Source: Tricharina praecox (Eukaryota). Taken from it: DNA of 56,456 nucleotides. The stretch is from contig NW_026250461.1 of assembly GCF_024521635.1 (NCBI RefSeq), positions 1-56,456 of the forward strand, read 5' to 3'. Positions 1 to 41,055 of this stretch are shown piece by piece; the stretch's first letter is position 1; each line of letters starts with the position of its first letter. The notes beneath the pieces were generated by a model, which was not told where the DNA came from, did not search any database, and was given only the letters and a program-made list of their open reading frames with translations. The translations under genes and the position numbers were made by a program.

Positions 1-66
1 GAGGAGCTGAGAATGGCCAACTACAAGGCTGGCTGGAAGTTTCCTGACCAGAAGTGGAGGGTCTAG
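1..66 (+). CDS. 3' end (partial, window edge) of a GLEBS-motif small protein, paralog of the array genes
   Basis: Translates EELRMANYKAGWKFPDQKWRV*, nearly identical to the C-terminus EELRMADYKAGWKFPEMKWR* of ORF 31930..32463(-). Confidence 0.8.
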   Translation, partial: EELRMANYKAGWKFPDQKWRV

Positions 67-6329: not shown

Positions 6330-7214
6330 AAAAACGGCTTTTTACCCTCGTGCACCCCTCCGGCGCTGAAATAGCGCCCATGTACCCCCCTATCCTCGAT
6401 GTACCCCACGCAAAATTTTATAATTAAAGTACGGTAATTGTTTACCGCAACAAAACAGATTTACTCCTCCACCACCACCATAAACCAGATTTTAGTTCAA
6501 TTAAAGTACGGCAATTCTTCACCACAACAAAATAGAGGCCCTTTCTTATGGCAAATGGGCCGAAATCTACAAAGCGGCTGTGACACCGTTCGACTGGGAG
6601 GGCTTCAACAAAATCATCAAGGAGGACTCGGGCTCAGACTCTCCGCGCCAGGCAGAAGAGACTAGAGAGAACCGACTTCAGCTTCAATCCTGCAAGCCAC
6701 CATTGACCAAGATACCGCGGGGTAGACCGGCAAAAAAGCGAGTACAGAAGGGCGACATGCGGAGGAAGGGGTACACTCCTAGCAATGGTGGATCTAGTCT
6801 GCCGGACGTGTCTAATAAACCTCCGCCACGCTGTAGCATCTGCAGTGGTGTTGGTCACTATGCGCCCAAATGTAGGCAGCCACACAGGTAAGCAATTACT
6901 GAAAACCCGGAAAAAGAAAAAACGCTGCTACATACGTGGTTCTGGTGGGTAGAACTACAATCTGGCTTTTAGTGGTGGAGAAATAAATCTGTTTTGTTGT
7001 GGTGAAGAATTGCCGTACAGTGACAAAAAAATACATACTTTAATTGAACTAAAATCTGGTTTTTGGTGGTGGTGGAGGAATAAATCTGTTTTGTTGTGGT
7101 AAACAATTACCGTACTCTAATTATAAAATTTTGTGTGGGGTACATCGAGGATAGGGGGGTACATGGGCGCTATTTCAGCGCCGGAGGGGTCCACGAGGGT
7201 AAAAAGCCGTTTTT
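6330..7214. mobile_element. Non-autonomous Mutator-like (MULE) DNA transposon with ~200-bp terminal inverted repeats
   Basis: 6330-~6536 is the near-perfect reverse complement of ~6985-7214 (aaaaacggctttttaccctcg...cgagggtaaaaagccgttttt). The TIRs contain internal sub-repeats and enclose a transposase-like fragment. No clean target-site duplication can be resolved in the A/T-rich flanks. Confidence 0.85.
6580..6891 (+). pseudogene. C-terminal remnant of a MULE-type transposase (RGRP motif plus CCHC zinc knuckle)
   Basis: PPLTKIPRGRPAKKR...RCSICSGVGHYAPKC (C-X2-C-X4-H-X4-C). No DDE domain and no ATG start; lies between the TIRs. Confidence 0.75.
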
Positions 7215-23491: not shown

Positions 23492-23791
23492 TGCGGAAGA
23501 AGGAGAACGAGAAGAAGGGGAAGAAGAAGAAAGTAAAAAAAGAAGCGGAACAGCAGGGAGAAGTGGAAGGGCAGTTACTCACCCAGCAACAACCAGTCCC
23601 GCGCCGCTCCTACGCTTCCCGGCCCCACGCCCAGTGCCCACGCCCGCTACGTAACGCAACCACCCACGTCCGCCGCCCACCTCTCGCGCATATCCTCGCG
23701 TAGCACCAACGCTCCACCACCACCCACCAACACACACGGCGGGCACCCGTCGTAGTCGTCGTCGTCGTCGTCGTCTTTGTCGCCCGAGGCC

Positions 23792-26375
23792 ATGCATACC
23801 AACATATCGCCCGCGTCGCCCGCCTCGGTCTCGGCCTCATCGTCGTCGCGAAAGCGACCCTCCCCCCCCTCCTCCGAGTCCACCACCACCACCACATCCA
23901 AGATTCCCGCGCCCACGACGAACCAGGCCACGACGTTCACTACGCCAGAGGGCCGGAAGAATTCCCGCAGCGGCCCGAGCAATGGCTCCACCGTCATCAG
24001 CAGGAGCATCCAGGCGTGCAATCGGTGTCGTGCGCGAAAGACTCGATGCGATCAGCAGTTTCCGAGCTGCTCGGCGTGTTCGAAGGCCGGTGTTGAGTGT
24101 GTGGGTATCGATGCGGCAACTGGAAGGGAGATTCCGAGGAGTTATGTCGACTGGCTCGAGAAGAGGGTCAAACATCTCGAGATGGAACTGAAATTGGAGC
24201 ATCATGCGCCGGCACCGCCGGCGGCGGAGGAGGGGGACGGCCGTGGCAGGATTGATCCGATGCTGCAGCCGGCGGCTGCTTGGGGTGAGGAACGGACGGC
24301 AGATGGGGGAGGTGGAGGAGGTGGAGGAGGTGGATGCGGAGGCGGAGGTGCTGGGCAGACGGTGGACACGGATGTTGGCAGGATGCAGGCACACAGGGAC
24401 GATACACCCAGGGACGATAGGGACAGGAACGATAGTGGGGAGAGTAGAGCGCTGCATCTACGACCTGATATCGAGAATCTGGTGAATCAGGTCGGGCTGG
24501 TTGGCGTGCAGGGCACAAGTGCTCCGGGTTTCATGGGTGGAAGTTCCGGCATCTCGTAGGTGCTCTTCCTTTTGTGTCTGCGGGAGACACTCCCCGGGGC
24601 GTACAACTGACGCAGATTTCCAGTTTTGCACGACTTATGTTCTCGGCGGTCAAATTGACCAACAAGGACTCCGAACGAGGGGCGGGAAATCCTGCGCCGT
24701 TGTTTGCGCCTCAGAACTCAGCCCCGGACTCGATGAATACTCCGGATCCCGTCGTGTCGTCAACTGTCGTCCCGCGTAATCGACAGCGTGCAACGCCGTG
24801 TCCGTTCCCGACTCGGGAGGTTGCCGAACAGCTGGTCGAAATATACTTCCAACAGGCTAATCCGCAGTTTCCGATCCTGTTCCGGCCGACATTCGACGTC
24901 GTGTTCCGAAGGTTATGTGATCGTGTGGAGCTGGAAGGAGGCGCTACAGTGCCCGCCGGCAGCGGCAATCTCCAGACCGACAGGATCCAACACTGGGCGG
25001 ACCTCTACTTCGCATTCATGTGCTTCGCAATTGCTTCAGCAATGTCTCAGAGCACCGAAAACCTGCCGGAACGGTACCACGCATCTGCGATGCAGTACGT
25101 AGACTACCTCTTCATGTCAGCCTCGTTCTCGAGCAATAGGTTGGATGGGCTGAAGGGTGTTTTGCTTCTGGCTCTGTATTCCCTGATGAGACCTTGCAGT
25201 CCCGGTACGGAAGAGAAATCTATGCGCGATGCGCGAGTGCTGCTGTGTGGGGTCGGTTGCTGATGTTCGTTTATTCTCTCTCTCTAGGCGTGTGGTATGT
25301 CCTTGGATCCGCGTTGCGGCTGGCGGTGGATATGGGGTTGCACCAGGAGAACACGCCGAAAGCGGAGAAGACGTGGGATCCGGTGGCGCTCGACGAACGG
25401 CGGCGGTTGTTCTGGTGCACTTATTCCCTCGATCGGCAGGTGTGCGTGTACCTCGGCCGGCCGTTCGGAATGTCGGACGACGCGATAAAGACACCGTTCC
25501 CGGTCGACGTGGACGACGAATACATCACGGTCAATGGGATCCTGCCTCAACCGTTAGGCAGAAAGTCATCCCGTACGATCTCGTTGCACATGTTCCGGAT
25601 CCGGAGGCTGCAGAGTGAAATACAGCAAATCCTCTACCAGACCACCGAGATCCCGCGGAGGTTCCAGTCGCTCGAGGGTTGGCGTAGGGATATGGAGGCG
25701 AGACTGCAGCATTGGTACGATACCACGCCAAAATCGCAGGATGAGGCGGGCTGTGGGTTCAACCTTTCGTTTGTTGATCTGAATTATCAACAGACCAGGC
25801 TACTGTTGTATGGCCTGTGCCCTGCGGTTCCACTGCCTTCCTCGGAGGCATTCGAGATCATTGCGGACTCGGGGAGTAAGATCATCAAAGCGTACCGCCA
25901 TCTCCATCGGGAAAAGAGCATAAACTACACCTGGCTAGCTTGCCACAACCTCTTCATGGCCGGTAAAATTCCTCCCATCCCTTCCCATCCCCTCCGCAAA
26001 CTCACAGATCCACATAGGAACCTCATATCTCTGCGCGCTCTGGCAATCACCTGATGTCCGTGCCGCCACCACGATCGACCAGATCGACTTCCACACACTA
26101 GCCTGCATTGACGTGCTCTCGTCGATGATCGAGCGCTGTCCCGCAGCACAGACGTGTCGCGATGTGTTCGACTCCCTCGCCTCCTCGACTGTCCGCCTCT
26201 GCAGCGACGAGATAATGCGGCCGCGCTCGCAAACCTCGAACCACTCGCACTCGGGCCACAGAGCAAAGCGGTTCCGTGTCGACTCCCCCGCCCCCCAGCT
26301 GGAGTGGGACTACTCGGCCCCGCAGATCCCCGCCAGTCTCGCGAACCTGCTGCATCCTCCGCCCCCTCCGCCTCC

Positions 26376-26462
<87 letters not shown>

Positions 26463-26679
26463 GCAACAGCACCAACAAGAGTACAGATACGAATACCCGC
26501 AGCAAGAGCTCGACCCCATCTTCCGGATGCCGCTGGGTACCGTCGGCGCGGGCATGGACGGCAGCAGACTTTTCGAGATGATACAGGAAGTGGGAAGCAG
26601 CGGGGGCGTGGCGTATGGATTCGGTCTGGAGAATATGGGCGGACATGTGTGGGAGGGCACAGGGAGCGGGTGGGTGTAG
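23792..26679 (+). CDS. Zn(II)2Cys6 transcription factor of the UaY/Ppr1 type (purine/pyrimidine regulator) with Fungal_trans domain
   Basis: ACNRCRARKTRCDQQFPSCSACSKAGVECVGIDAATGREIPRSYV, G.ALRLAVDMGLH and RRRLFWCTYSLDR. Introns ~24557-24623, ~25206-25287 and ~25962-26017. Confidence 0.88.
26377..26469 (+). repeat. CAA/CAG repeat encoding ~31 Gln in the Zn2Cys6 factor C-terminus
   Basis: Read directly from the sequence; preceded by a poly-Pro run. Confidence 0.95.
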
Positions 26680-27496
26680 TGGGGGTAGGTAATGTGTGAC
26701 AACGGGAGGGAGGATAGCGGGGGGTGGTTTGATTTGGGAGTTTATGGTAGCTTTTTTTGTTTTTTGCGGTGCGGTTTATTTTCTTCATGGGAAGCGGTTT
26801 CTGTGGTTGTAACTATCTGCGGCGGTGGTGGTGATTCGAATAATTGAACAAACAAACCAACGTGAATGGACCATTCGGATTTTTTTCGGGATGGGATGGG
26901 AGTGCTCAGTGGAAGGCGGGGTTTTTTTCTTCTACGCATATGAAACTGGAAGAAAGTGATGTGCAGGTAGGTAGATTGATACGGTGTGATCTGCTTTTTT
27001 TGCTACCAAGTATGCCGCTATAGTGCATTCCTCGTCGTCCAAGATATTAGTAAGGTACCTAGAGGAGTTGTTCAGAGTTCTAGCTTAGAAGATTCCCAAG
27101 CGCCGCTGCCGGTATGTGACTAGCCAGAACTCATCAGCCCCGCCTGTACGTACGCCTGTACTTACTTACCTACATAAGTTCCCCTCGCCATACTCAAGCA
27201 CGGTCGATCACTCGCCATCACCTCGCCCTCATTGGGAATTATAATGTACTATATAGTAAGTAACACACGCGCATGCCATAGTGGGAAAGCCCGAAGGAAG
27301 GATGGAAGTTATGGCTGGCTGGCTGTTACTCCTAACTCCAATATCACCATTCCAAAACAAGTCGTCATTATGAAAAGCAATTTTATTTTATTTATCCGGT
27401 ATCTCGTCCTTTTCTTCAAAAAATTCACCCACTCCCACCCCACTCTTACCCCAATCCCGCCCGCCCAATCCCGCCCCCTCCCGCCCCCCCTCCCCT

Positions 27497-27856
27497 TCAC
27501 GTCGGAAACCTCCACCCAGCCCCATAATCCGCCAACCTCAGCTCCTCCATCGACATGCCCGCCCACGCGGGCGACATGCAGATGCTCTGGTAGGCCACGG
27601 TGGGAATGGCGGGATTACGCGAGGCCCAGTACACGCCCGCGAGGTGCGGGTGGGATAGGGGCGTCGTTGGGGCGCCCCGCATGCACGTGGATGGGGACTT
27701 GTTGGCTGGGCTGGTGGAGCTGGTGGAGCTGGATGAGATGGCGGGTGGGTGAGGAGGAAACTTGGGGAATGTGAAGGTGGCGGAGGTGGAGGTGGCGGAG
27801 GTGGAGGGGGTAGTGGAGGTGGTAGGCGGATCGTTATTGGTGGTGGGATGAGACAC
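27497..27856 (-). CDS. GLEBS-motif small protein, copy A (119 aa; start codon is GTG, possibly inactivated)
   Basis: S/T/P-rich N-terminus followed by YQSICMSPAWAGMSMEELRLADYGAGWRF. It has GTG where copy B has ATG. Confidence 0.6.
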   Translation of the reverse strand: MSHPTTNNDPPTTSTTPSTSATSTSATFTFPKFPPHPPAISSSSTSSTSPANKSPSTCMRGAPTTPLSHPHLAGVYWASRNPAIPTVAYQSICMSPAWAGMSMEELRLADYGAGWRFPT

Positions 27857-30074
27857 TGTTGATGGTGGAAATGTAATGTCGTGGAGGGGAGAGTGAGTTA
27901 TTTTGATTTAAGAAGTGGTGGTGGTGGTCGTGATGGAGGAGAGGAGGAGTGACGATGGTGGTGGAGGAAGAAGAGTTGTGGTGGAAGCCGAAGAGTTGTG
28001 GTGGAGTAAGAAGAATAGGAGTTGTGGAGAAGGAAGAGAAAGAGAAAGGTAAGTCAAGAGAGCAACCTAAAAATGCAGAGCACATGGAGTTCCAAGTCAA
28101 CACATCACCATCACTCGGCGAATACGCACACTAGGCTAGCCAACACTAGCCAACAGCCTTGGTGCCCAATCAACGACACCAACACCCACACAACCTCGAT
28201 CCAGCGCTACCTAGCCTAACACGATTCGTTGGGTGTGTAGCCGGAATCAACAACTTCGCTCCCGGAAACAAGCAACGTTGTGTCATTATAGCTCACTCGC
28301 GGTCGAGCGAGAACTTCGCTCGTGGGATGGAAGGTAACTAACTCTTACTCCCCACGCCAGCTCTCGTACATACCTACATACCATCGGAGAATGTACTCTA
28401 TCGGAGGCTTGCCATCCGTCCGTCTGGTAGTGTCACTGCAGCTGTATATACCTAGCATTGGTGGCATTTTTCTTCTCAACGCGTACCTACCTACCTACTA
28501 GTAGACGAGGCATCGAGGGTGACAGACAGATACGAGTACCTGTCTTAATAGCTGTTGAAAAGTGGTCTTGGAGTTGATAGGTGCACTGGTGGGAGGAAGG
28601 ATACAGACGATGATGATGATGATGTAAGAGATATCGACTTAGGTAGATACTTCTTGGTATCAAAGGAGAGTCCCATGCTATCCTCATAGCGCCCCGAAGG
28701 CTGCCAGCCACAGCGTTTCCGCAGCAGTCAAACATGGCAGTCAAACAAACAAACGAGTGACATCCCGTGAAGCACACACCTGATACCTACCTAATCAACA
28801 GTATGGATTGGTTGTGAAGGGCTGAAACAGTTGCGGTGATGTTGCTTCTATATAAAGGACCCAGTGGGGTTCTAATAGGCCAGCCACTGCATTGTTTGAC
28901 CAAGAAATTTCAAAAAGTAGTCGACTGGCGTTCAGGGCGGTCACAGAGACGGAGACGGCGGAAGGATGGCAGTGTATTTATGTAGGTGAGGAGTCATACA
29001 GAATCTACAGGGTGCTGATGGGTATAATACTGCCACAACCACCACGAAACTCCTCGAGTACAGGTGGGTATCTATAAGTTTGGAGTCAGCTCTAAATCCA
29101 GCTCTAAATCCAGCTGGACGGAACGAGTGAACTGCGATAGGAAAGAGATGGCCTGTCATTCGTCATCGACAGGCGCGCACATCATCATGTCCAGTCCAAA
29201 CTCCAGCTGCCATCATGGAATTGTCCTGAAAATGTGAAATAGCAATGTTAGATAGCAGTTGCAAACACAGAAGCCGCGGCGACATACATAAGACAAAGAC
29301 AAACCCACAGGGACACGGATCCACGCTTGGGGAGTATTATGGCACGGCTTTTTTTGGCGATATTCGCCACGAGTGACGAAAGTGGCCCGCAGGCTGCTGA
29401 GCTGCATGCATGGCCTTCGGGTTTGGTCCTACAGTCCTACATATGCCGCTACATTCCTCGTCGTCCAAGATATTGGTAAGGTACCTAGAGGGGTCGTTCA
29501 GGGTTCTAGCTTACATAGAAGACTCCCAACCGCCGCTACCAGTAACCAGGCAGAGCACATCAGCCCCGCCTGTACGTACGCCTGTACTTACTTACATACA
29601 TAAGTTCCCCTCGCCAGCAGCCATACCCAAGCACAGACGATCACTCACACTCACACTCACCCTCAGCTGTCAAAATCACGAACTTTCGTGTACCGTGCCA
29701 TGCGAGATCACTCTCTGTCTAGACGCTTCCGGTATCCGTTCCCACCTGAGGTGGCAAGAGGCCACTATTTGAGACATCCCCGCCTTGTTCTACATATGCC
29801 TTTCCACCGGGCGCGTGGGGTGGGATTGGGGATTACAACGCACTGCCTATATAGTAGTACGCGCGTATATATGTCACAGTGGGGAAGGAAGATTGGAAGT
29901 TATGGCTGTTACGGTTACAATTGGTATCACCATTACAAAACAAAACAAGTCGTCATTACGAAAAGCAATTTTATTTTATTTATTCGTTATCTCGTACTTT
30001 TGCAAATTCACCCACTCTCAACCCGCTCCTACCCCACTCTTACCCCAACCCCACCCCCCCACTCCCCCTCCCCT

Positions 30075-30437
30075 TCATTTCGGAAACCTCCACCCAGCCC
30101 CATAATCCGCCAACCTTAGCTCCTCCATCGACATGCCCGCCCACGCGGGCGACATGCAGATAGTCTGGTAGGCCACGGTCGGAATGGCAGGATTACGCGA
30201 GGCCCAGTACACGCCCGCGAGGTGCGGGTGGGATAGGGGCGTCGTTGGGGCGCCCTGCATGGACGTGGACGTGGACGTGGACGTGGACTTGTTGGCTGAG
30301 CTGGTGGAGGTGGTGGAGCTGGCGGAGCTGGCGGGTGGGTTCGGGGGCAACTTGGGGGATATGGAGGACCGGGAGGAGGAGGCGGTGGAGGTGGTGGAGG
30401 TGGTAGGTGGATCGTTATTGGTGGCGGGATGAGACAT
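30075..30437 (-). CDS. GLEBS-motif small protein, copy B (120 aa, intact)
   Basis: ATG in 'caacaATG' context; single exon; ends YQTICMSPAWAGMSMEELRLADYGAGWRFPK*. Confidence 0.8.
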   Translation of the reverse strand: MSHPATNNDPPTTSTTSTASSSRSSISPKLPPNPPASSASSTTSTSSANKSTSTSTSTSMQGAPTTPLSHPHLAGVYWASRNPAIPTVAYQTICMSPAWAGMSMEELRLADYGAGWRFPK

Positions 30438-30495
30438 TGTTGATGGTGTAAATGTAGTGGAGTGGAGTGGAGAGTGAGGTATTGTGACTTGAGAA

Positions 30496-30555
30496 GTGGT
30501 GGTGGTGGTGGTGGTGGTGGTGGTGGTGGTGGTGGTGGTGGTGGTGGTGGTGGTG
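30496..30555. repeat. (GGT)n microsatellite, about 20 copies, upstream of GLEBS copy B
   Basis: Read directly from the sequence; shorter or degenerate at the equivalent positions in units A and C. Confidence 0.95.
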
Positions 30556-31929
30556 GAGGAGGAAGAGAAGTGGCGATGGTGGTGGAGGAAGAAGAGTTGT
30601 GATGGAAGCCGAAGAGGAAGAAGAGTTGTGGTGGTGGAAGAAGAAGAAGAGTTGTGGTGGTGGAAGAAGAATAGGAGTTGTGGTGGAGGAAGAGGAATGG
30701 TAGTGGTGGAAGAGGAAGAGGAGTGGGAGGAGAAGGGAAAGAGGGAAAATGAAACTTACCTATCTACAGAGCGCTTGGAATCCCAAATCAACACATCACC
30801 ATCACTCGACGAATCGGCACAGGCTAGCCAGTACTAGCCAACAGCCTTGGTGCGCGCAAAATAAAACTGGAAGATCTCTCTCTCAGCCTTGGTGCCCAAT
30901 CGACGACGCCAACACCCACACCCACAACATTAATCAGGCCCTATGTACATAGCTCGACACGACTCATTGTGTTGAAAATATGCGGTAGTAAAGTACATCA
31001 GAAAATGTATCCAGACGATGATGACCTATGTAAGAGATATCGACCTACGTAGATTGCTAGGAAAAGAGAGTACTAGACACATATCGCTGCGCAGGCTGCC
31101 AGCCACAGCGTTTTTGCAGCAGTGAAATAAGGCAGTGAAACAAACTAACGAGTGATATCCCGTGACGTGAAGCACACACGTGATAATCAACATTGAACAG
31201 GATGGATATTATGAAGGAGTTGAAAGAGTTGTGGTGACGAGAGGATGTTAATTCTACATAAAGGATTCAGTGGAGTTCTAATAGGTCAGCCACTGTATGG
31301 AATTGTCAAATAGCAATGTCAAATAGCAGTTGCAAACACGCAGAAGCCGCGGCGACACAAGACAAAGACAAAGCCGCAGAGACACGGATCCACGCTTGAG
31401 GATGATATCATTGTACGGCTTTTTTGGCGATCTTCGCCACTAGTGACGAAAGTAGCCGGCAACCGAGCTGCTGAGCTGCATGGCCTTCGGGTTTGGTCCT
31501 ACCTAAGTATATATGCCGCTACATTCCTCGTCGCCCAAGATATTGGTAAGGTACCTAGAGGAGTCGTTCAGAGTTCTAGCTTAGAAGACTCCCAAGCGCC
31601 GTTACCAGTAACCAGGCAGAGCACATCAGCCCCGCCTGTACGCCTGTACTTACTTACATAAGTTCCCCTTGCCATACCTAAGCACGGACGATCACTCACC
31701 TTCACCCTCACCCTCAATGGGGATTATAATGCACTATATTATAGCACGCGCGTATGTCACAGTGAGGAAGGAAGGTTGGAAATTATGGCTGGCCGTATAG
31801 TTACGACTACAATATCACCATTACAAAACGAGAAGTCAAGAAAATTAAGAAAAAAAGAGATCTATTCGGTATCTAGGAACTTTTAAAGAGGGAAAACAAA
31901 GGAACCCACTCTTGCCCAAACCCCGCCCC

Positions 31930-32883
31930 CTACCTCCACTTCATTTCGGGAAACTTCCAGCCAGCCTTGTAGTCGGCCATTCTCAGCTCCTCCATCGACA
32001 TGCCCGTCCACTCGGGCGACATGCAGATGTTCTGGTAGACGACGGGGGGAATGGCGGGATCGGGCGAGGCGTAGTACACGCCCTCGAGGCGGGGGTGAAA
32101 GGCGGGAGACACTGGAGTGCCCTTTCCAGACGTGTACCTGTTGGCGTCATTGATGTCACTGGCGTCGTCCTCGTCGTCATCGAAGAACGTCGGCGGAATA
32201 CCCATCTGCCATTGGTGGTGCGTGTCCTGGCTGAAGATGGGACTTGCTTCGGGGGATGATGGAGCACAGATATTGAAGTCACCGGATATGGTAGGAGCAT
32301 TGAGAGTGTTGGGCCAGTGGCGAGTGCTGGTCGTCGAGCTCGAGGCCGAAGCGCCGCTTCCGGTCACCCAAGAACGTTTCGGAAATAGAAACAGGTTGTC
32401 GTTGATATTGTTGGCGGTGGCTGCAACGGTCGTGTTGGCCGTGTTTCCCGTAGTGAAAGGCATACTAGAGCCCTCACCCAGGCTTAGTGCTTCTAGGGCT
32501 TCGGTGATAGTCTAAATCTTGCAGATAGCAACTTGGACAGGAAGCTTGGTGACAACCATTAAAAAGTTAGCGGCGAGTAAAATAGGCTTGAACCAGCCCG
32601 CAGCTGCAGCCGAGGATGGGCCGGCCGGATTCTGCTGATCGGCTCGACGGAGGTGGTGGAAGCTGCGGGCGTCATCAGCGTCAAGCACGTGTATATATAG
32701 GAAATAAATACTGTACGTACCCTTGAAGCCCTCAGCGGAAGTATCGTAGTGTTCGTCTGTCGGCGTCGGACGGCTTTCCGGCTTCGGGGCTCGGTTGTTG
32801 GGGAATAGGGTGGACTTGAAGGTGGCGGCGGTGGCGGGGACGGGGATGATACTTAAATCGTCATCGGTGTTGGGATAAGCCAT
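31930..32883 (-). CDS. GLEBS-motif protein, copy C (longer form; exon structure uncertain)
   Basis: ORF 31930..32463 ends YQNICMSPEWTGMSMEELRMADYKAGWKF. The ATG homologous to the start of copies A and B is at 32883 (MAYPNTDDD), and an intron-like GTACGT...CTGATGAC..CAG lies at ~32663-32719. The join to the GLEBS ORF is unresolved. Confidence 0.65.
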
Positions 32884-35819
32884 TATTGCTGGTGTAAATG
32901 TAATGGGGTGGAGTGGTGAGTGAGTTATTGTGGTTTAAGAAGTGGTGGTGGTGGATGAGGAGTAGCAGTGGTGGTGGTGGACCAGGAGTAGCAGTGGTGG
33001 TGGTGGACCAGGAGTAGCAGTGGTGGTGGTGGAAGAAGAATGGGAGTGGCAGTGGAGGATGAGGAGTAGCAGTGGTGGTGGAGGAAGAGGAATGGGAGTG
33101 GTGGAGGAGGAAGAGAAGAAGAAGAGAAAGTCAAGAGAGCAACCCTAAAAATACAGAGCACACGAAGTTCCAAGTCAACACATCACCATCACTCGGCGAA
33201 TTCACAGGCTAGCCAATACTATCCAATAGCCTTTGTGCTCAATCGACAACACCAACACCCACACAACCTCGCTCCAGCCCTACCTAGCCTAATACGACTC
33301 GTTTTTTATGTACATAGCCGGAATCAACAACTACGGTCCCGGACACAAGCAACGTCGTGCCATGAAAGTTCACTCGCGGTCGATCGATAACTTCACTCGT
33401 GGGCTGGAAAGTGAACAGCCAATAAGTCATGCCTCACCACCTTTACGAATTATAAGCACAAGGTGAGGCACCACTTACCATCATACGAGTACATATCATT
33501 GATAGGCGCCGGTATCGAGCTCGCGGTCAGCGGTCGGAGACAGACGGATGGGAGGATGTGCCATTAGAAATATAGTGAAGTACATAAGAAAATGTATCCA
33601 GACGATGATGACTTATGTAAGAGATATCGACCCAAGCATCCTGTTATGGAAAGAGAGTCCTATTCACACAGCGCCCCGCAGGCTGCCAGCCCCAGCGTTT
33701 TCGCAGCAGTAAACCAAGACGGCGAAAACAAATAGCCGAGTGATATCCTGTGAAGCACACACGTGATAATCAACGTTAGGAATTGATTGTGAAGGGTTGA
33801 AAGAGTCGCTTTGACACGGTGATATTGCGGTGATGTTTCTTCTACACAAACGGTTTGGCGGGGGTTCTCATCGCCCAGCCGCCAGCCACATGGTTTTCCC
33901 CAAAAATTCCAGAAAGCGGCAGTCGACTGCAGTCCGTGCCGGCAAAATCTTGGACTCTTGTATAGACGGACTGACTATTATTTACACACACACCACTCTC
34001 CGGTTTTATGGGCTAGACGAGACTAGACTAGACTACCGGCAGAACTGGATGAGATGGAGGGAGGGAGAGAGGGAGGGAGGGAGCGAAGCCTGGAGACGTT
34101 CCGGGCGATCACGGGACGGATCCGGCTAGGGAGGGATGGCGGTGTGGCGGTGCGGCGGTGTGGCGGTGTATTAGGAGAGGAGTCAAATAGAACTTATAGG
34201 AGGCTGATGGGTATGCTATTGGTACTATGACAAGGGTACAGTCGATGTGCGGTGCTCGAACGCCGAGGAACAGGAAGAGAACTACTTAGGTGTTCTGTCG
34301 ACATGATTGGGAGGAAGGAGGTGTAGGACATCATGGCAGAGGCGGAGGGGTTTCAAGTTTGAGATAATTGTGCCGATGACTTCCCGGAAGTTGGAACCGG
34401 GGAGGAGAGACCAGCTGGAAAGAGTGGGTTCGCACGGATTGGTATGATATTTATGGTTGGTTGAAACTTGAAATTCAATAGCCAACTCGTACCGTATTTG
34501 GTGGTGGATCAGTGGCACGACGACTCGAGAGTGAAGCATTTGGCGAGAGGAATGTGTGTATTATTATGGATCACACCAGATAGCTGAACTTCCGTGTTTC
34601 GACTTTCAAGCAGTTGCGCAGACGCAATTCAACACAGGTGACCAGTGACCAGTGACCGCTCCAAGTGACCACCCCAAGTAACCAAACCTGAGTGCTGTCC
34701 CCCACGGCCCGTGTAGCTAAAATCAGATGTATCCACAATCCATCTACAAATAGCGCAGCCCTACCTATTCACCAGAACATCGGCTTCATGACCGGTCACC
34801 GCAACACCGTTGGGCATCTGGATTCTGACTGTGTCACTCGTCTGTTGAAACTCCCCGTCGTCTACAACCTTTCCCGTCCTCCGTCTTTGTATTACCATCC
34901 AGGGCTTTGTCAACCTGTCAACCTGTCAACTCGTCAAGAGAATAGGTACAAGACCCAATCCTATACATACTATACTTAGGTTTCAGCTCTAAATCCAGCT
35001 CTAAATCTACCTGGATGTCGGATGGATGTCCGATGGACGGGACTTGACGAGCGAATGGTATTCGTCGACAGGCGGGCACATCATGCCCAGCTGCCGTCAT
35101 GGGAATGTCAAATAGCGATTGCAAACACAGAAGTCGTGGCGATATAAGATATTAATAATTGATATAGTAGAGCAGTCATCCACAGCTCTACTATGATAGC
35201 TTAGAAGACTCTTGAGTAAGTGCCACTACCTACCAGACAAAGCACTCAGCCCCGCCTGCATGTACCTACACAAGTTCCCCCGAGCCATGACCGATCACTC
35301 ACCCTCACCCTCGCCCTCAGCCACAGCCACAGCCACTCGCCACGTGGACAGTGACTCCGCAACCAAACGCCGCTTACTCCACGCCCCCCATCAGCCATCG
35401 CCGACAGATAAAAACACTCACATTGATGCTGACAACGTCCGACTCCGTCACTGTACTGTACCGTACCGCAAGTTCTGATCTGACGTGACACCGGCGGCGG
35501 TTACGTGATTGAGAATTTGACATACTGTAGACATGCACATTTCGACCATACTTGGGCCATTCTCCTGGGGGGGGGAGGGAGGGATCGCAATGTTCAAAAT
35601 TCAAATCCGAGATTGCGTTTTTTTTTACTTTGGAAAGCGGGGATGCGGAATCTGCAGGTAGAGTTTCCCACGCAGGAATAACAATCCAACGACGAGCCAG
35701 CCAGCCGGTCAATTGGCTTTCCCTAGGGTCCCAGCGAGTGTTCGATGGAAACTTCCATTCGGCACATACTTTGGGTAGAGTATGTATCAGCGGTGGTGAA
35801 ACATGATTGGCGGCGGGGG

Positions 35820-39301: not shown

Positions 39302-39574
39302 ACCGGGTGTTGGATAGGTTGGGATGGGATGGAGATTGGCGCCACTTCGTTTTTTTTCTTCTTTTTTTCTTCTTTTTTTCTTCTTTTTTTGTTTCTGCTT
39401 TTCTTGACCTTTCTGTCGTGTTTTCTGATTCTTTCGTTATGGATACCTTGCTTCATATGCTTACTTTTTCATCTGATCTGATCTGATTCACTTTTCTCTC
39501 TCGAGTCTGAGGAAAACAGTCAACAGTCAAAACGTCAACACTTCAACAGTCGTCAAATCGACAAATCGTTCTGA

Positions 39575-39851
39575 CACTTCTGGCACTTCTGGCACTTCTG
39601 GCACTTCTGGCACTTCTGGCACTTCTGGCACTTCTGGCACTTCTGGCACTTCTGGCACTTCTGGCACTTCTAGCACTTCTGGCACTTCTGGCACTTCTGG
39701 CACTTCTGGCACTTCTGGCACTTCTGGCACTTCTGGCACTTCTGGCACTTCTGGCACTTCTGGCACTTCTGGCACTTCTAGCACTTCTGGCACTTCTGGC
39801 ACTTCTGGCACTTCTGGCACTTCTGGCACTTCTGGCACTTCTGGCACTTCT
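39575..39851. repeat. (CACTTCTGG)n 9-bp tandem array, about 31 copies
   Basis: Near-perfect array with two G>A variants, at 39672 and 39780. Confidence 0.97.
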
Positions 39852-41055
39852 ACTCTACATACGGTACTCCTCACTCACTGTGTATCTACCTCCACCAAGA
39901 GTAGCTGTGGATATATCCCCCTCCCCTGCAATGGGTGGTGAGCCGGGGTAACCACATATTCATCTTTTCTTCTTGCACTGCCTCACTCGTTTAACTTTAG
40001 AGTCTTAGAGTCGGTACATAACGACAACTCTAAGTATGGTTGGGGACGCCTATAACCGGAGTGAATTGCGACATTCATTTTGGCTGACAAATCACGAGTG
40101 ATTATAGTGTGTCTACGCCAAAAATGGGGGGTTAATAAGTGCGCCGCAGGTAATTTTTCGAATACAGAGCAAGTAATTTTCGTAATTATGAAGATTTTTG
40201 GGCCGTATGGCCCCATTTTTGACCTATTTGGATGTGTTCTGAAGAGGTCCAAGTCGAATAGCACTCATGCGCGAGCTCAGTTTGGATGAGCAAGGATCAA
40301 TCCGCGCCAAGGCTCGAATAAGGCTCACTATATGTCACTCCTATCACCGCTGTGGGAAATTAAAAGAGTGCCAGAGCCTTAGTGCATGCTATTATTTGCG
40401 ACGTTCCAAAATCCTGCCCATACAAATCAATTCTTTTCAACCCGCTTAAATTAATTCATCACGCTTTATATTTTTATTTCGCTTCTATGGCGACCTACTT
40501 TAATCCTTCCTCTATCATGCTATAGAGCTCTTTTAATTTTACTGGGTGTTGAGGTTGAGTTAAACCGGGGGTGGAGTTGGGCATTTTTTCACTCCTATTT
40601 TAGGTGTCCCCAACCATATAACCTCCCTACATAATCTACCGCATCTTCGAAATTGCTTCGTGCGAGTACATAGTGCATTGATGGGGGGGGAGGGAGGGGC
40701 GACGATGATGATGACGGGCGGCATCGTGCACGGGGAATCACTCGTCTGCGCTCTCGGTCTGCTCTGCGGTCTCGGTCTCGATAGGTGTAGTAAGGGTGAA
40801 TGTTCTGGTCTTTTATAGCAGAGGAGGTACATAGCAGTAGTAAACAGACATGCATATCGGTCTAGACAACTCCCACCATATAAACAACTCAAGGAAAATG
40901 GTAATCAGAAGATGAACCTGAAGCGAAAAACAAAACAAACAGAAGCATGTTCTATCAATACAATACGCGTCCGCCTCTCATCCACGGTACATACATGGTA
41001 TCTATCTCCAAGATCCAGATACAAGCACCACCATCCCCGGGCCCCCTGTACTATA

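Follow-up and report, generated by a model that had tools for sequence, protein, structure and literature searches.

What do the small, tandemly repeated genes on scaffold NW_026250461.1 of Tricharina praecox (Pezizomycetes, Pyronemataceae) encode, and might their products interfere with the mRNA-export factor Gle2? The window examined here is this entire scaffold of 56,456 bp, and the genes in question are three copies (A, B and C) on its minus strand together with the tail of a fourth (D) at its edge, each ending in the same conserved block. The array is best explained as a family of small, intrinsically disordered T. praecox proteins that is restricted to this lineage and has been amplified in tandem, with one constrained element, a motif that resembles the GLEBS motif of the nucleoporin Nup98. 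As to function, we favor, at a probability of about 0.55, that the array proteins would be soluble Gle2-binding proteins which compete with the GLEBS of the nuclear pore itself.

The conserved block and its Nup98-type core

The open reading frames (ORFs) described by the first-pass annotation were recovered on the minus strand at 27497-27682, 30075-30437 and 31930-32463, as was the edge tail on the plus strand at 1-66. The anatomy of the copies was derived from an alignment of the repeat units and from a tblastn search of the window with P0071 (BZA05DRAFT_447638, 323 amino acids), a dispersed paralogue encoded on another T. praecox scaffold:

27497-27856, minus strand: copy A; conserved block 27500-27676, GLEBS-like core 27500-27604
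30075-30437, minus strand: copy B, an intact ORF of 120 amino acids; conserved block 30078-30254, core 30078-30182
31930-32883, minus strand: copy C in its long form; conserved block 31933-32121, core 31945-32049
1-66, plus strand: copy D, the last 21 codons and the stop codon of a fourth copy, cut by the end of the scaffold

The block comprises 59-63 residues at the C-terminus. Those of A, B and C could be aligned without gaps over 59 columns, 40 of which are invariant (mean column identity 85%), and this alignment reproduced the consensus that had been proposed for the block. All four blocks, A to D, are free of stops and frameshifts. The GLEBS-like part is formed by the last 33 residues and follows the pattern Y-Q-x-I-C-M-S-P-x-W-x-G-M-S-M-E-E-L-R-x-A-D-Y-x-A-G-W-[RK]-F-P, a single C-terminal motif which ends 1-5 residues before the stop codon. 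Nup98_GLEBS (PF21240) was the only Pfam family common to copies A, B and C and to the protein entries P0001, P0002 and P0071, copy A giving one additional weak match (Crystall_2). The profile hit anticipated by the first-pass annotation was thus found in so far as this is the sole family matched by all copies, while the scores (13.1-15.9 bits, E 0.014-0.1) fell below the gathering threshold of 27 bits, which was not reached by any array copy.

When a profile of the block was compared with all sequences of the Protein Data Bank (PDB), the top four distinct matches, although weak (E 0.10-0.14), were Nup98 GLEBS peptides bound to Rae1 (chains 3mmy_B, 7byf_B, 4owr_B and 7vpg_B), with the block residues Y-Q-x-I...S-M-E-E-L-R-L-A-D-Y lying on H-Q-C-I...S-L-E-E-L-R-L-E-D-Y. 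An hmmsearch of the same profile against 1.84 billion representative proteins gave 67 matches at E<=1e-3, six of them at <=1e-10. The annotated forms of A and C were recovered at E 6e-38 and 3e-36 and GLEBS-bearing proteins at values down to 3e-13, which argues that the match goes beyond chance. A local hidden Markov model (HMM) of the core detected between one and eight motif instances in most of the 67 matches. Among the 65 non-self matches, 14 look low-complexity (13 without the core motif, and P0059 with a fragment only); these align to the front of the profile, which is rich in Pro and Ser, and probably represent noise from low complexity. Leaving out these 14 and the two self matches, 51 proteins were scanned with Pfam, and Nup98_GLEBS was found at E<=0.01 in 50 of them (35 at 27 bits or more, 15 below), P0066 having none. 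The scanned set includes the FG-rich, nucleoporin-like proteins P0014 (268.7 bits), P0023 (145.2 bits) and P0017 (Entomophthora muscae). In an hhalign comparison of the block with 21 motif windows from six FG-rich proteins the probability was 98.1% (P 7.5e-14, columns 26-58), a value that is partly circular because the block's own profile had retrieved the comparison set, whose Pfam identity is independent of the block. The first 25 block residues had no match outside T. praecox in the hmmsearch, the best non-self stretches starting at about profile position 20-30. Judged by these comparisons, the last 33 residues are a divergent Nup98-type GLEBS-like motif, and the likeness to the GLEBS of Nup98 and Nup116, which the first-pass annotation had pointed out, is borne out by the PDB matches, by 50 of the 51 scanned relatives and by hhalign.

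The glutamate pair of the motif is invariant in all five Tricharina copies (M-E-E-L-R in A, B, C and P0071, EELR in D), and this pair, the following L and R, the D/N-Y and the upstream Q-x-I are retained in all copies. In the HMMER alignments to the PDB chains the pair falls on E201/E202 of Nup98. As related by Occhipinti et al. (2013, PMC3783196) from the structure of Ren et al. (2010), the GLEBS is a long hairpin that covers the top of the Rae1 propeller, and Nup98 E201/E202 (E154/E155 in Nup116) make conserved salt bridges to two arginines of Rae1/Gle2; the same paper describes that mutation of those two arginines in yeast Gle2 broke the interaction.

Selection on the motif

The ratio of non-synonymous to synonymous substitution (dN/dS) was estimated by the Nei-Gojobori method and tested by Fisher's test, with few substitutions underlying each of the values:

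Whole block, A-B: dN/dS 0.12; 5 synonymous and 2 non-synonymous differences, Fisher p=0.0098
GLEBS-like core, codons 26-59, A-C: dN/dS 0.27, p=0.021
GLEBS-like core, codons 26-59, B-C: dN/dS 0.20, p=0.003
Block front, codons 1-25: dN/dS 0.81 (A-C) and 0.55 (B-C), not significant
Low-complexity N-terminus, A-B: dN/dS 1.08

Seven differences in 177 nucleotides separate the blocks of A and B, and five of them are at third codon positions. It had been proposed that conservation is limited to the motif and that the remainder of the protein diverges; dN/dS values of 0.12-0.27 in the motif against about 1.08 in the N-terminus bear this out, indicating that the GLEBS-like motif is under purifying selection while the N-terminus drifts. 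Gene conversion may add to the low divergence between A and B, since the proportion of synonymous differences in their block (pS 0.115) is below the flank mismatch of about 0.18-0.20.

Proposed function and its precedent

Nothing in the array proteins apart from the motif recalls a nucleoporin. FG and GLFG are absent (0 of each) from A, B, C and the annotated models, P0071 having 1 FG, and no Nucleoporin_FG, autoproteolytic or pore-anchoring domain was matched by Pfam in copies or models (E<=1-10), which upholds the earlier statement that these proteins are not nucleoporins. AlphaFold2 gave no confident fold for copy B (mean predicted local distance difference test score, pLDDT, 47.7), and in P0071 (mean pLDDT 36.5) only residues 91-130 reach 57-69; such low-confidence models would fit disordered proteins carrying a short motif.

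A precedent for a GLEBS acting outside of a nucleoporin was provided by Pritchard et al. (1999, PMC2133102), who described that NUP98(181-224) alone binds RAE1, that on overexpression of this fragment RAE1 leaves the nuclear envelope and poly(A)+ RNA accumulates in the nucleus, and that neither effect is seen once the motif carries point mutations or extra RAE1 is supplied. The Nup98 stretch aligned to the array core falls within residues 181-224, and it is because this free fragment behaves as a competitor, and spans the aligned core, that we read the array proteins as putative competitors. As is predicted for them, the free NUP98(150-224) or (181-224) fragment is a soluble protein made essentially of the motif alone; it was reported to titrate RAE1 from the nuclear envelope and to block the export of poly(A)+ RNA (PMC2133102), which is also what the array proteins are predicted to do. 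The fragment was made artificially and used in human cells, whereas the array motif is natural and multi-copy, its binding and effect being predicted.

In the mechanism proposed here, the motif would fold against the top of the WD40 propeller of Gle2/Rae1, as the nucleoporin GLEBS does, its two glutamates pairing with the two conserved arginines of Gle2/Rae1. Lacking both FG repeats and a domain to anchor them in the pore, the array proteins would keep Gle2 away from it, and through competition with the pore GLEBS the Gle2-dependent export of mRNA and pre-60S particles might be lowered or redirected. Gle2 binding, the direction of the effect and the expression of the array proteins are points that we infer only.

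Organization of the array and anatomy of the copies

The array had originally been placed at 27497-32883, limits which proved too narrow, as the unit alignment extends the repeat to approximately 26981-33752. Repeat families D5-D19 and the three-way alignment of the units define the following arrangement, in which each unit holds one small gene with homologous 5' and 3' flanks:

~26981-33752, minus strand: tandem array of three units
~26981-29406, minus strand: unit A
~29407-31476, minus strand: unit B
~31477-33752, minus strand: unit C
30521-30749, 27941-28044 and 32890-33167, minus strand: pyrimidine-rich repeats with a period of ~26 nucleotides (families D3 and D4; alignment columns ~1340-1640)

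The units are ~2.1-2.6 kb long (repeat-family spacings 1867-2691 nucleotides), and the duplication covers whole units, including flanks with several hundred bases on the 3' side, and not the ORFs alone. The non-coding flanks between units are 73-85% identical over aligned positions. The pyrimidine-rich repeats are part of the common 5' region and sit directly in front of each start codon. Neither the Rfam scan nor the tRNA scan of the array gave a match.

Although the copies share the motif, they differ considerably upstream of it. Copy A has a GTG (27854-27856) at the position homologous to the start codon of the others, and from its upstream stop as far as the Met that immediately precedes the block there is no ATG; its first in-frame ATG lies two residues before the block and gives 61 amino acids only (27497-27682), while the frame remains open as far as 27907. 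In the public annotation copy A is a 156-amino-acid model with an added upstream exon (P0002, BZA05DRAFT_422995). Copy B begins at the homologous ATG, and 69% of its first 61 residues are Ser, Thr or Pro. In copy C the homologous start is the ATG at 32883, from which the copy is colinear with P0071 in the same frame to the stop, except for a single in-frame TAG at 32512-32514; the downstream ORF (31930-32463/32511) encodes 177 amino acids (31930-32463). In view of the homologous ATG, the stretch 32512-32883 is regarded as the 5' part of copy C and not as a separate gene. The public model, BZA05DRAFT_422997 (288 amino acids), which is also the exact match of copy C in NCBI, bypasses the TAG with two introns and adds a 3' exon. 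About 600 nucleotides of the middle region are deleted in A and B; this region, as seen in P0071, is degenerate in C. The DNA of copy D is 92% identical to the tail of copy C, and D shares ~270 nucleotides of 3' flank with the other copies, reaching approximately position 330. It is considered a separate copy since 3 of 20 aligned residues differ from P0071. The array is therefore heterogeneous and partly eroding upstream of the motif, so that the description of a family of motif copies stands, while that of equivalent mini-genes does not.

Three other identities were considered for these genes and rejected. They are not terminal exons of a larger known gene, a case against which the first-pass annotation had itself warned: the annotated models (156, 288 and 323 amino acids) have no other domain, and start and upstream region are homologous between the copies. 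A secreted effector was set aside because the N-termini, judged by eye, are not hydrophobic, and a transposon because no Pfam match was found in the unit ORFs scanned.

Apart from the genes, some intergenic segments of the array (28678-28770, 31073-31165 and 33660-33752, as well as 26981-27087, 29407-29513 and 31477-31583) are 66-92% conserved between units. The pair 29407-29513 / 31477-31583 is 92% identical, above its surrounding flanks, and falls where the public model of copy C puts the extra 3' exon. These segments had no Rfam match, and ORFs overlapping them no Pfam match.

Relatives in other fungi and known GLEBS proteins

Stand-alone GLEBS-like proteins are not confined to this array; the block-profile search found them in other fungi as well. 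Outside of nucleoporins, the Nup98-type GLEBS is common in fungi, in proteins of 100-500 amino acids with one to five motifs. Examples are Pyronema omphalodes KAI5819966.1, Tulasnella sp. KAG8844278.1, a three-motif family of Postia placenta, T. praecox BZA05DRAFT_245889 and many metagenomic sequences, and those with a name are all labeled "hypothetical", "uncharacterized" or "predicted". BZA05DRAFT_245889 (P0026, 341 amino acids, on another scaffold) represents a second kind of GLEBS-like protein in T. praecox. By eye, its long N-terminal region is partly charged and then Ser/Thr/Pro-rich, and its single C-terminal motif has the same G-W-R-Y-P-E-x-W-R tail as copy C; P. omphalodes P0032 (502 amino acids) ends in two motifs with this Pezizales tail. 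In P0006 (342 amino acids) and P0028 (840 amino acids, also with FG-rich repeats) three Nup98_GLEBS motifs are followed by a C-terminal RING finger, which has the look of an E3 ligase that could be aimed at Gle2/Rae1. A further family (P0013, P0020, P0027, P0034, P0041, P0045-P0049, P0055, P0058, P0060-P0062, P0065 and P0067), mostly of ~180-360 amino acids (P0065 has 430) and with "predicted protein" entries of Postia placenta in its P0013 cluster, carries GLEBS-like motifs, at most three, whose order is fixed: a short N-terminal one ending in T-T-G, a middle one, and a C-terminal one ending in G-R-x-L-[TS]-S.

Protein and metagenome searches found no homologue of the entire block outside T. 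praecox. A metagenome scan with the block profile gave 92 pattern matches, none of which was confirmed, and a scan with P0019 found two loci with a single motif each and no array. Copy C matched only itself in a search of the sequence index, a block-profile search at longer length gave only the annotated A and C and P0071, P0026 found only itself among 8000 scored candidates, and an ESM Atlas search with the block had no usable match.

The array proteins share with the GLFG nucleoporins (human Nup98, yeast Nup116 and Chaetomium Nup145N; PF21240) the core Q-x-I...aromatic...S-x-E-E-L-R-[LM]-x-D-Y-x-x-G/N-x-[RK], which coincides with the minimal RAE1-binding fragment 181-224. They differ in that FG/GLFG repeats are missing, as are autoproteolytic and anchoring domains, and their motif is single and C-terminal, has W for Y/F and a G-W-[RK]-F-P tail, and stays below the Pfam cut-off; the genes are small, tandemly amplified and lineage-restricted. 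In the other fungal non-nucleoporin GLEBS proteins, as in the array, the motif is mostly found in short, otherwise featureless proteins, those of Pezizales sharing the G-W-R-[FY] tail. Unlike the array proteins, most of them have at least two motifs and reach the Pfam threshold, and the two metagenomic relatives inspected are single genes, unlike the T. praecox array. Short GLEBS-type motifs with an essential acidic pair are also present in Bub1, Mad3/BubR1 and BuGZ, which bind the Rae1-like WD40 propeller Bub3; these resemble the array motif in their length and acidic pair, and differ in that no profile match to them was obtained from the array. In a full-text literature search judged on titles and abstracts, with most subscription journals outside its scope, no description of non-nucleoporin Nup98-type GLEBS proteins was found. 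What we rate as new is a known motif in an apparently free-standing, amplified and selected context.

Weighing the proposed function

Several observations weigh against the view that the array proteins compete for Gle2. The Pfam scores lie below threshold, the E-values of the PDB matches are weak, 14 of the 65 non-self matches probably reflect low complexity, and the hhalign probability is partly circular. A nucleoporin GLEBS has roughly 57 residues, and its N-terminal arm has no detectable counterpart in the block. In the array the conserved GLEBS aromatic Y/F is replaced by W and the basic tail N-R-K-G by G-W-[RK]-F-P. The dN/dS values depend on few substitutions and, between A and B, perhaps on gene conversion. 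Damage or an oddity upstream of the motif (A without ATG, the ~600-nucleotide deletion in A and B, the in-frame TAG in C) is found in all three copies, and copy B has no corresponding protein in the database, where the block-profile search gave only the annotated A and C forms and P0071. Finally, Seidel et al. (2022, PMC8907234) described that yeast Gle2 binds nascent Nup116 co-translationally, a mode of binding that could shield the pore-bound pool from free-motif competitors.

The upstream damage is also what one would expect if the array consisted of recent, decaying or never-translated duplicates without function, their motif being conserved through youth, gene conversion or ancestral selection. 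The GTG of copy A, the deletions in A and B and the TAG of copy C all fit such decay, as do the lack of a database counterpart for copy B and of a whole-block homologue outside T. praecox. It is nevertheless an unlikely account of the locus, as dN/dS is 0.12-0.27 in the motif (Fisher p 0.003-0.021) and 1.08 in the adjoining N-terminus, the changes between A and B are mostly at third positions, and four blocks have remained without stop or frameshift although the flanks diverged by 18-27%.

Two further possibilities accept that the motif binds a partner and differ on the consequence. As a positive adaptor or chaperone, the array protein would bind Gle2 in order to deliver or stabilize it elsewhere or on other cargo, and the joining of the same motif to RING fingers (P0006, P0028) and to long non-FG proteins (P0005, P0018, P0030) does suggest partner recruitment, as may the extended G-W-R-Y-P-E tail on the one C-terminal motif of T. 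praecox P0026 (341 amino acids). Beside the array motif there is only low-complexity sequence that evolves neutrally (dN/dS 1.08), with no conservation of a second binding surface; the middle region of P0071, which folds at low confidence only (pLDDT 57-69, residues 91-130), is missing from A and B and has degenerated in C, making this possibility quite unlikely. Bub3, which had been put forward as an alternative partner and would link the array to the spindle checkpoint and not to RNA export, is a propeller related to Rae1/Gle2, and both are bound by GLEBS-type motifs with an essential acidic pair. It found no sequence support here: no Bub1/Mad3 motif family was matched in Pfam at E<=10 by A, B or C (HMMER filters drop most matches above E ~0.1, so that a very weak match of this kind may escape), and all matches of solved structure and 50 of the 51 scanned relatives are of Nup98 type. 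We hold a role through Bub3 to be highly improbable, and competition for Gle2 remains the function that we favor.

Other features of the scaffold

The array is located among ordinary genes, which code for a ubiquitin-conjugating enzyme, a septin, an annexin-like protein, a Zn2Cys6 factor, a Na/H exchanger, an acetyl-CoA transporter, ribophorin I and others, and no WD40 gene was found among the 122 scaffold ORFs scanned. Immediately upstream of the array, an ORF with ~33 glutamine residues in a row (26125-26679, plus strand) comes after the Zn2Cys6 / Fungal_trans transcription-factor ORFs at 23756-26051. On the other side, a 9-nucleotide unit is repeated in tandem at least 33 times over 39497-39900, with 97-99% identity in the central part; the ORF that contains it (39477-39938, plus strand) matches the Pfam Collagen triple-helix repeat at 48.1 bits, a collagen-like Gly-X-Y tract in a fungus. 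At 6330-6508 / 7036-7214 there is an inverted repeat of 179 nucleotides, 97% complementary, with 527 nucleotides between its arms and a direct pair nearby (6972-7032 / 7069-7129), which may be a small foldback element.

Implications

A wider interpretation, which we consider doubtful at present, is that fungi have a hidden class of GLEBS proteins which are soluble and not tied to the pore, and that the array would be a fast-evolving, amplified branch of it whose products act as natural titrators of the essential export factor Gle2, either as a built-in, dosage-tunable brake on the export of mRNA and pre-60S particles in development or stress or as the "poison" arm of an element that is selfish or driven by conflict. 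A poison arm of this kind would account for the amplification in tandem, for the neutral drift of all but the motif and for the confinement to one lineage.

The contact between GLEBS and Gle2/Rae1 is a fixed docking point on the nuclear pore, as well as a target of viral proteins. If a natural, selected, multi-copy free GLEBS does exist in T. praecox, it would mean that export is regulated, by cells or by genetic elements resident in them, through competition for Gle2. Attention would then also turn to the many unnamed fungal non-nucleoporin GLEBS proteins, some of which are RING E3 fusions.

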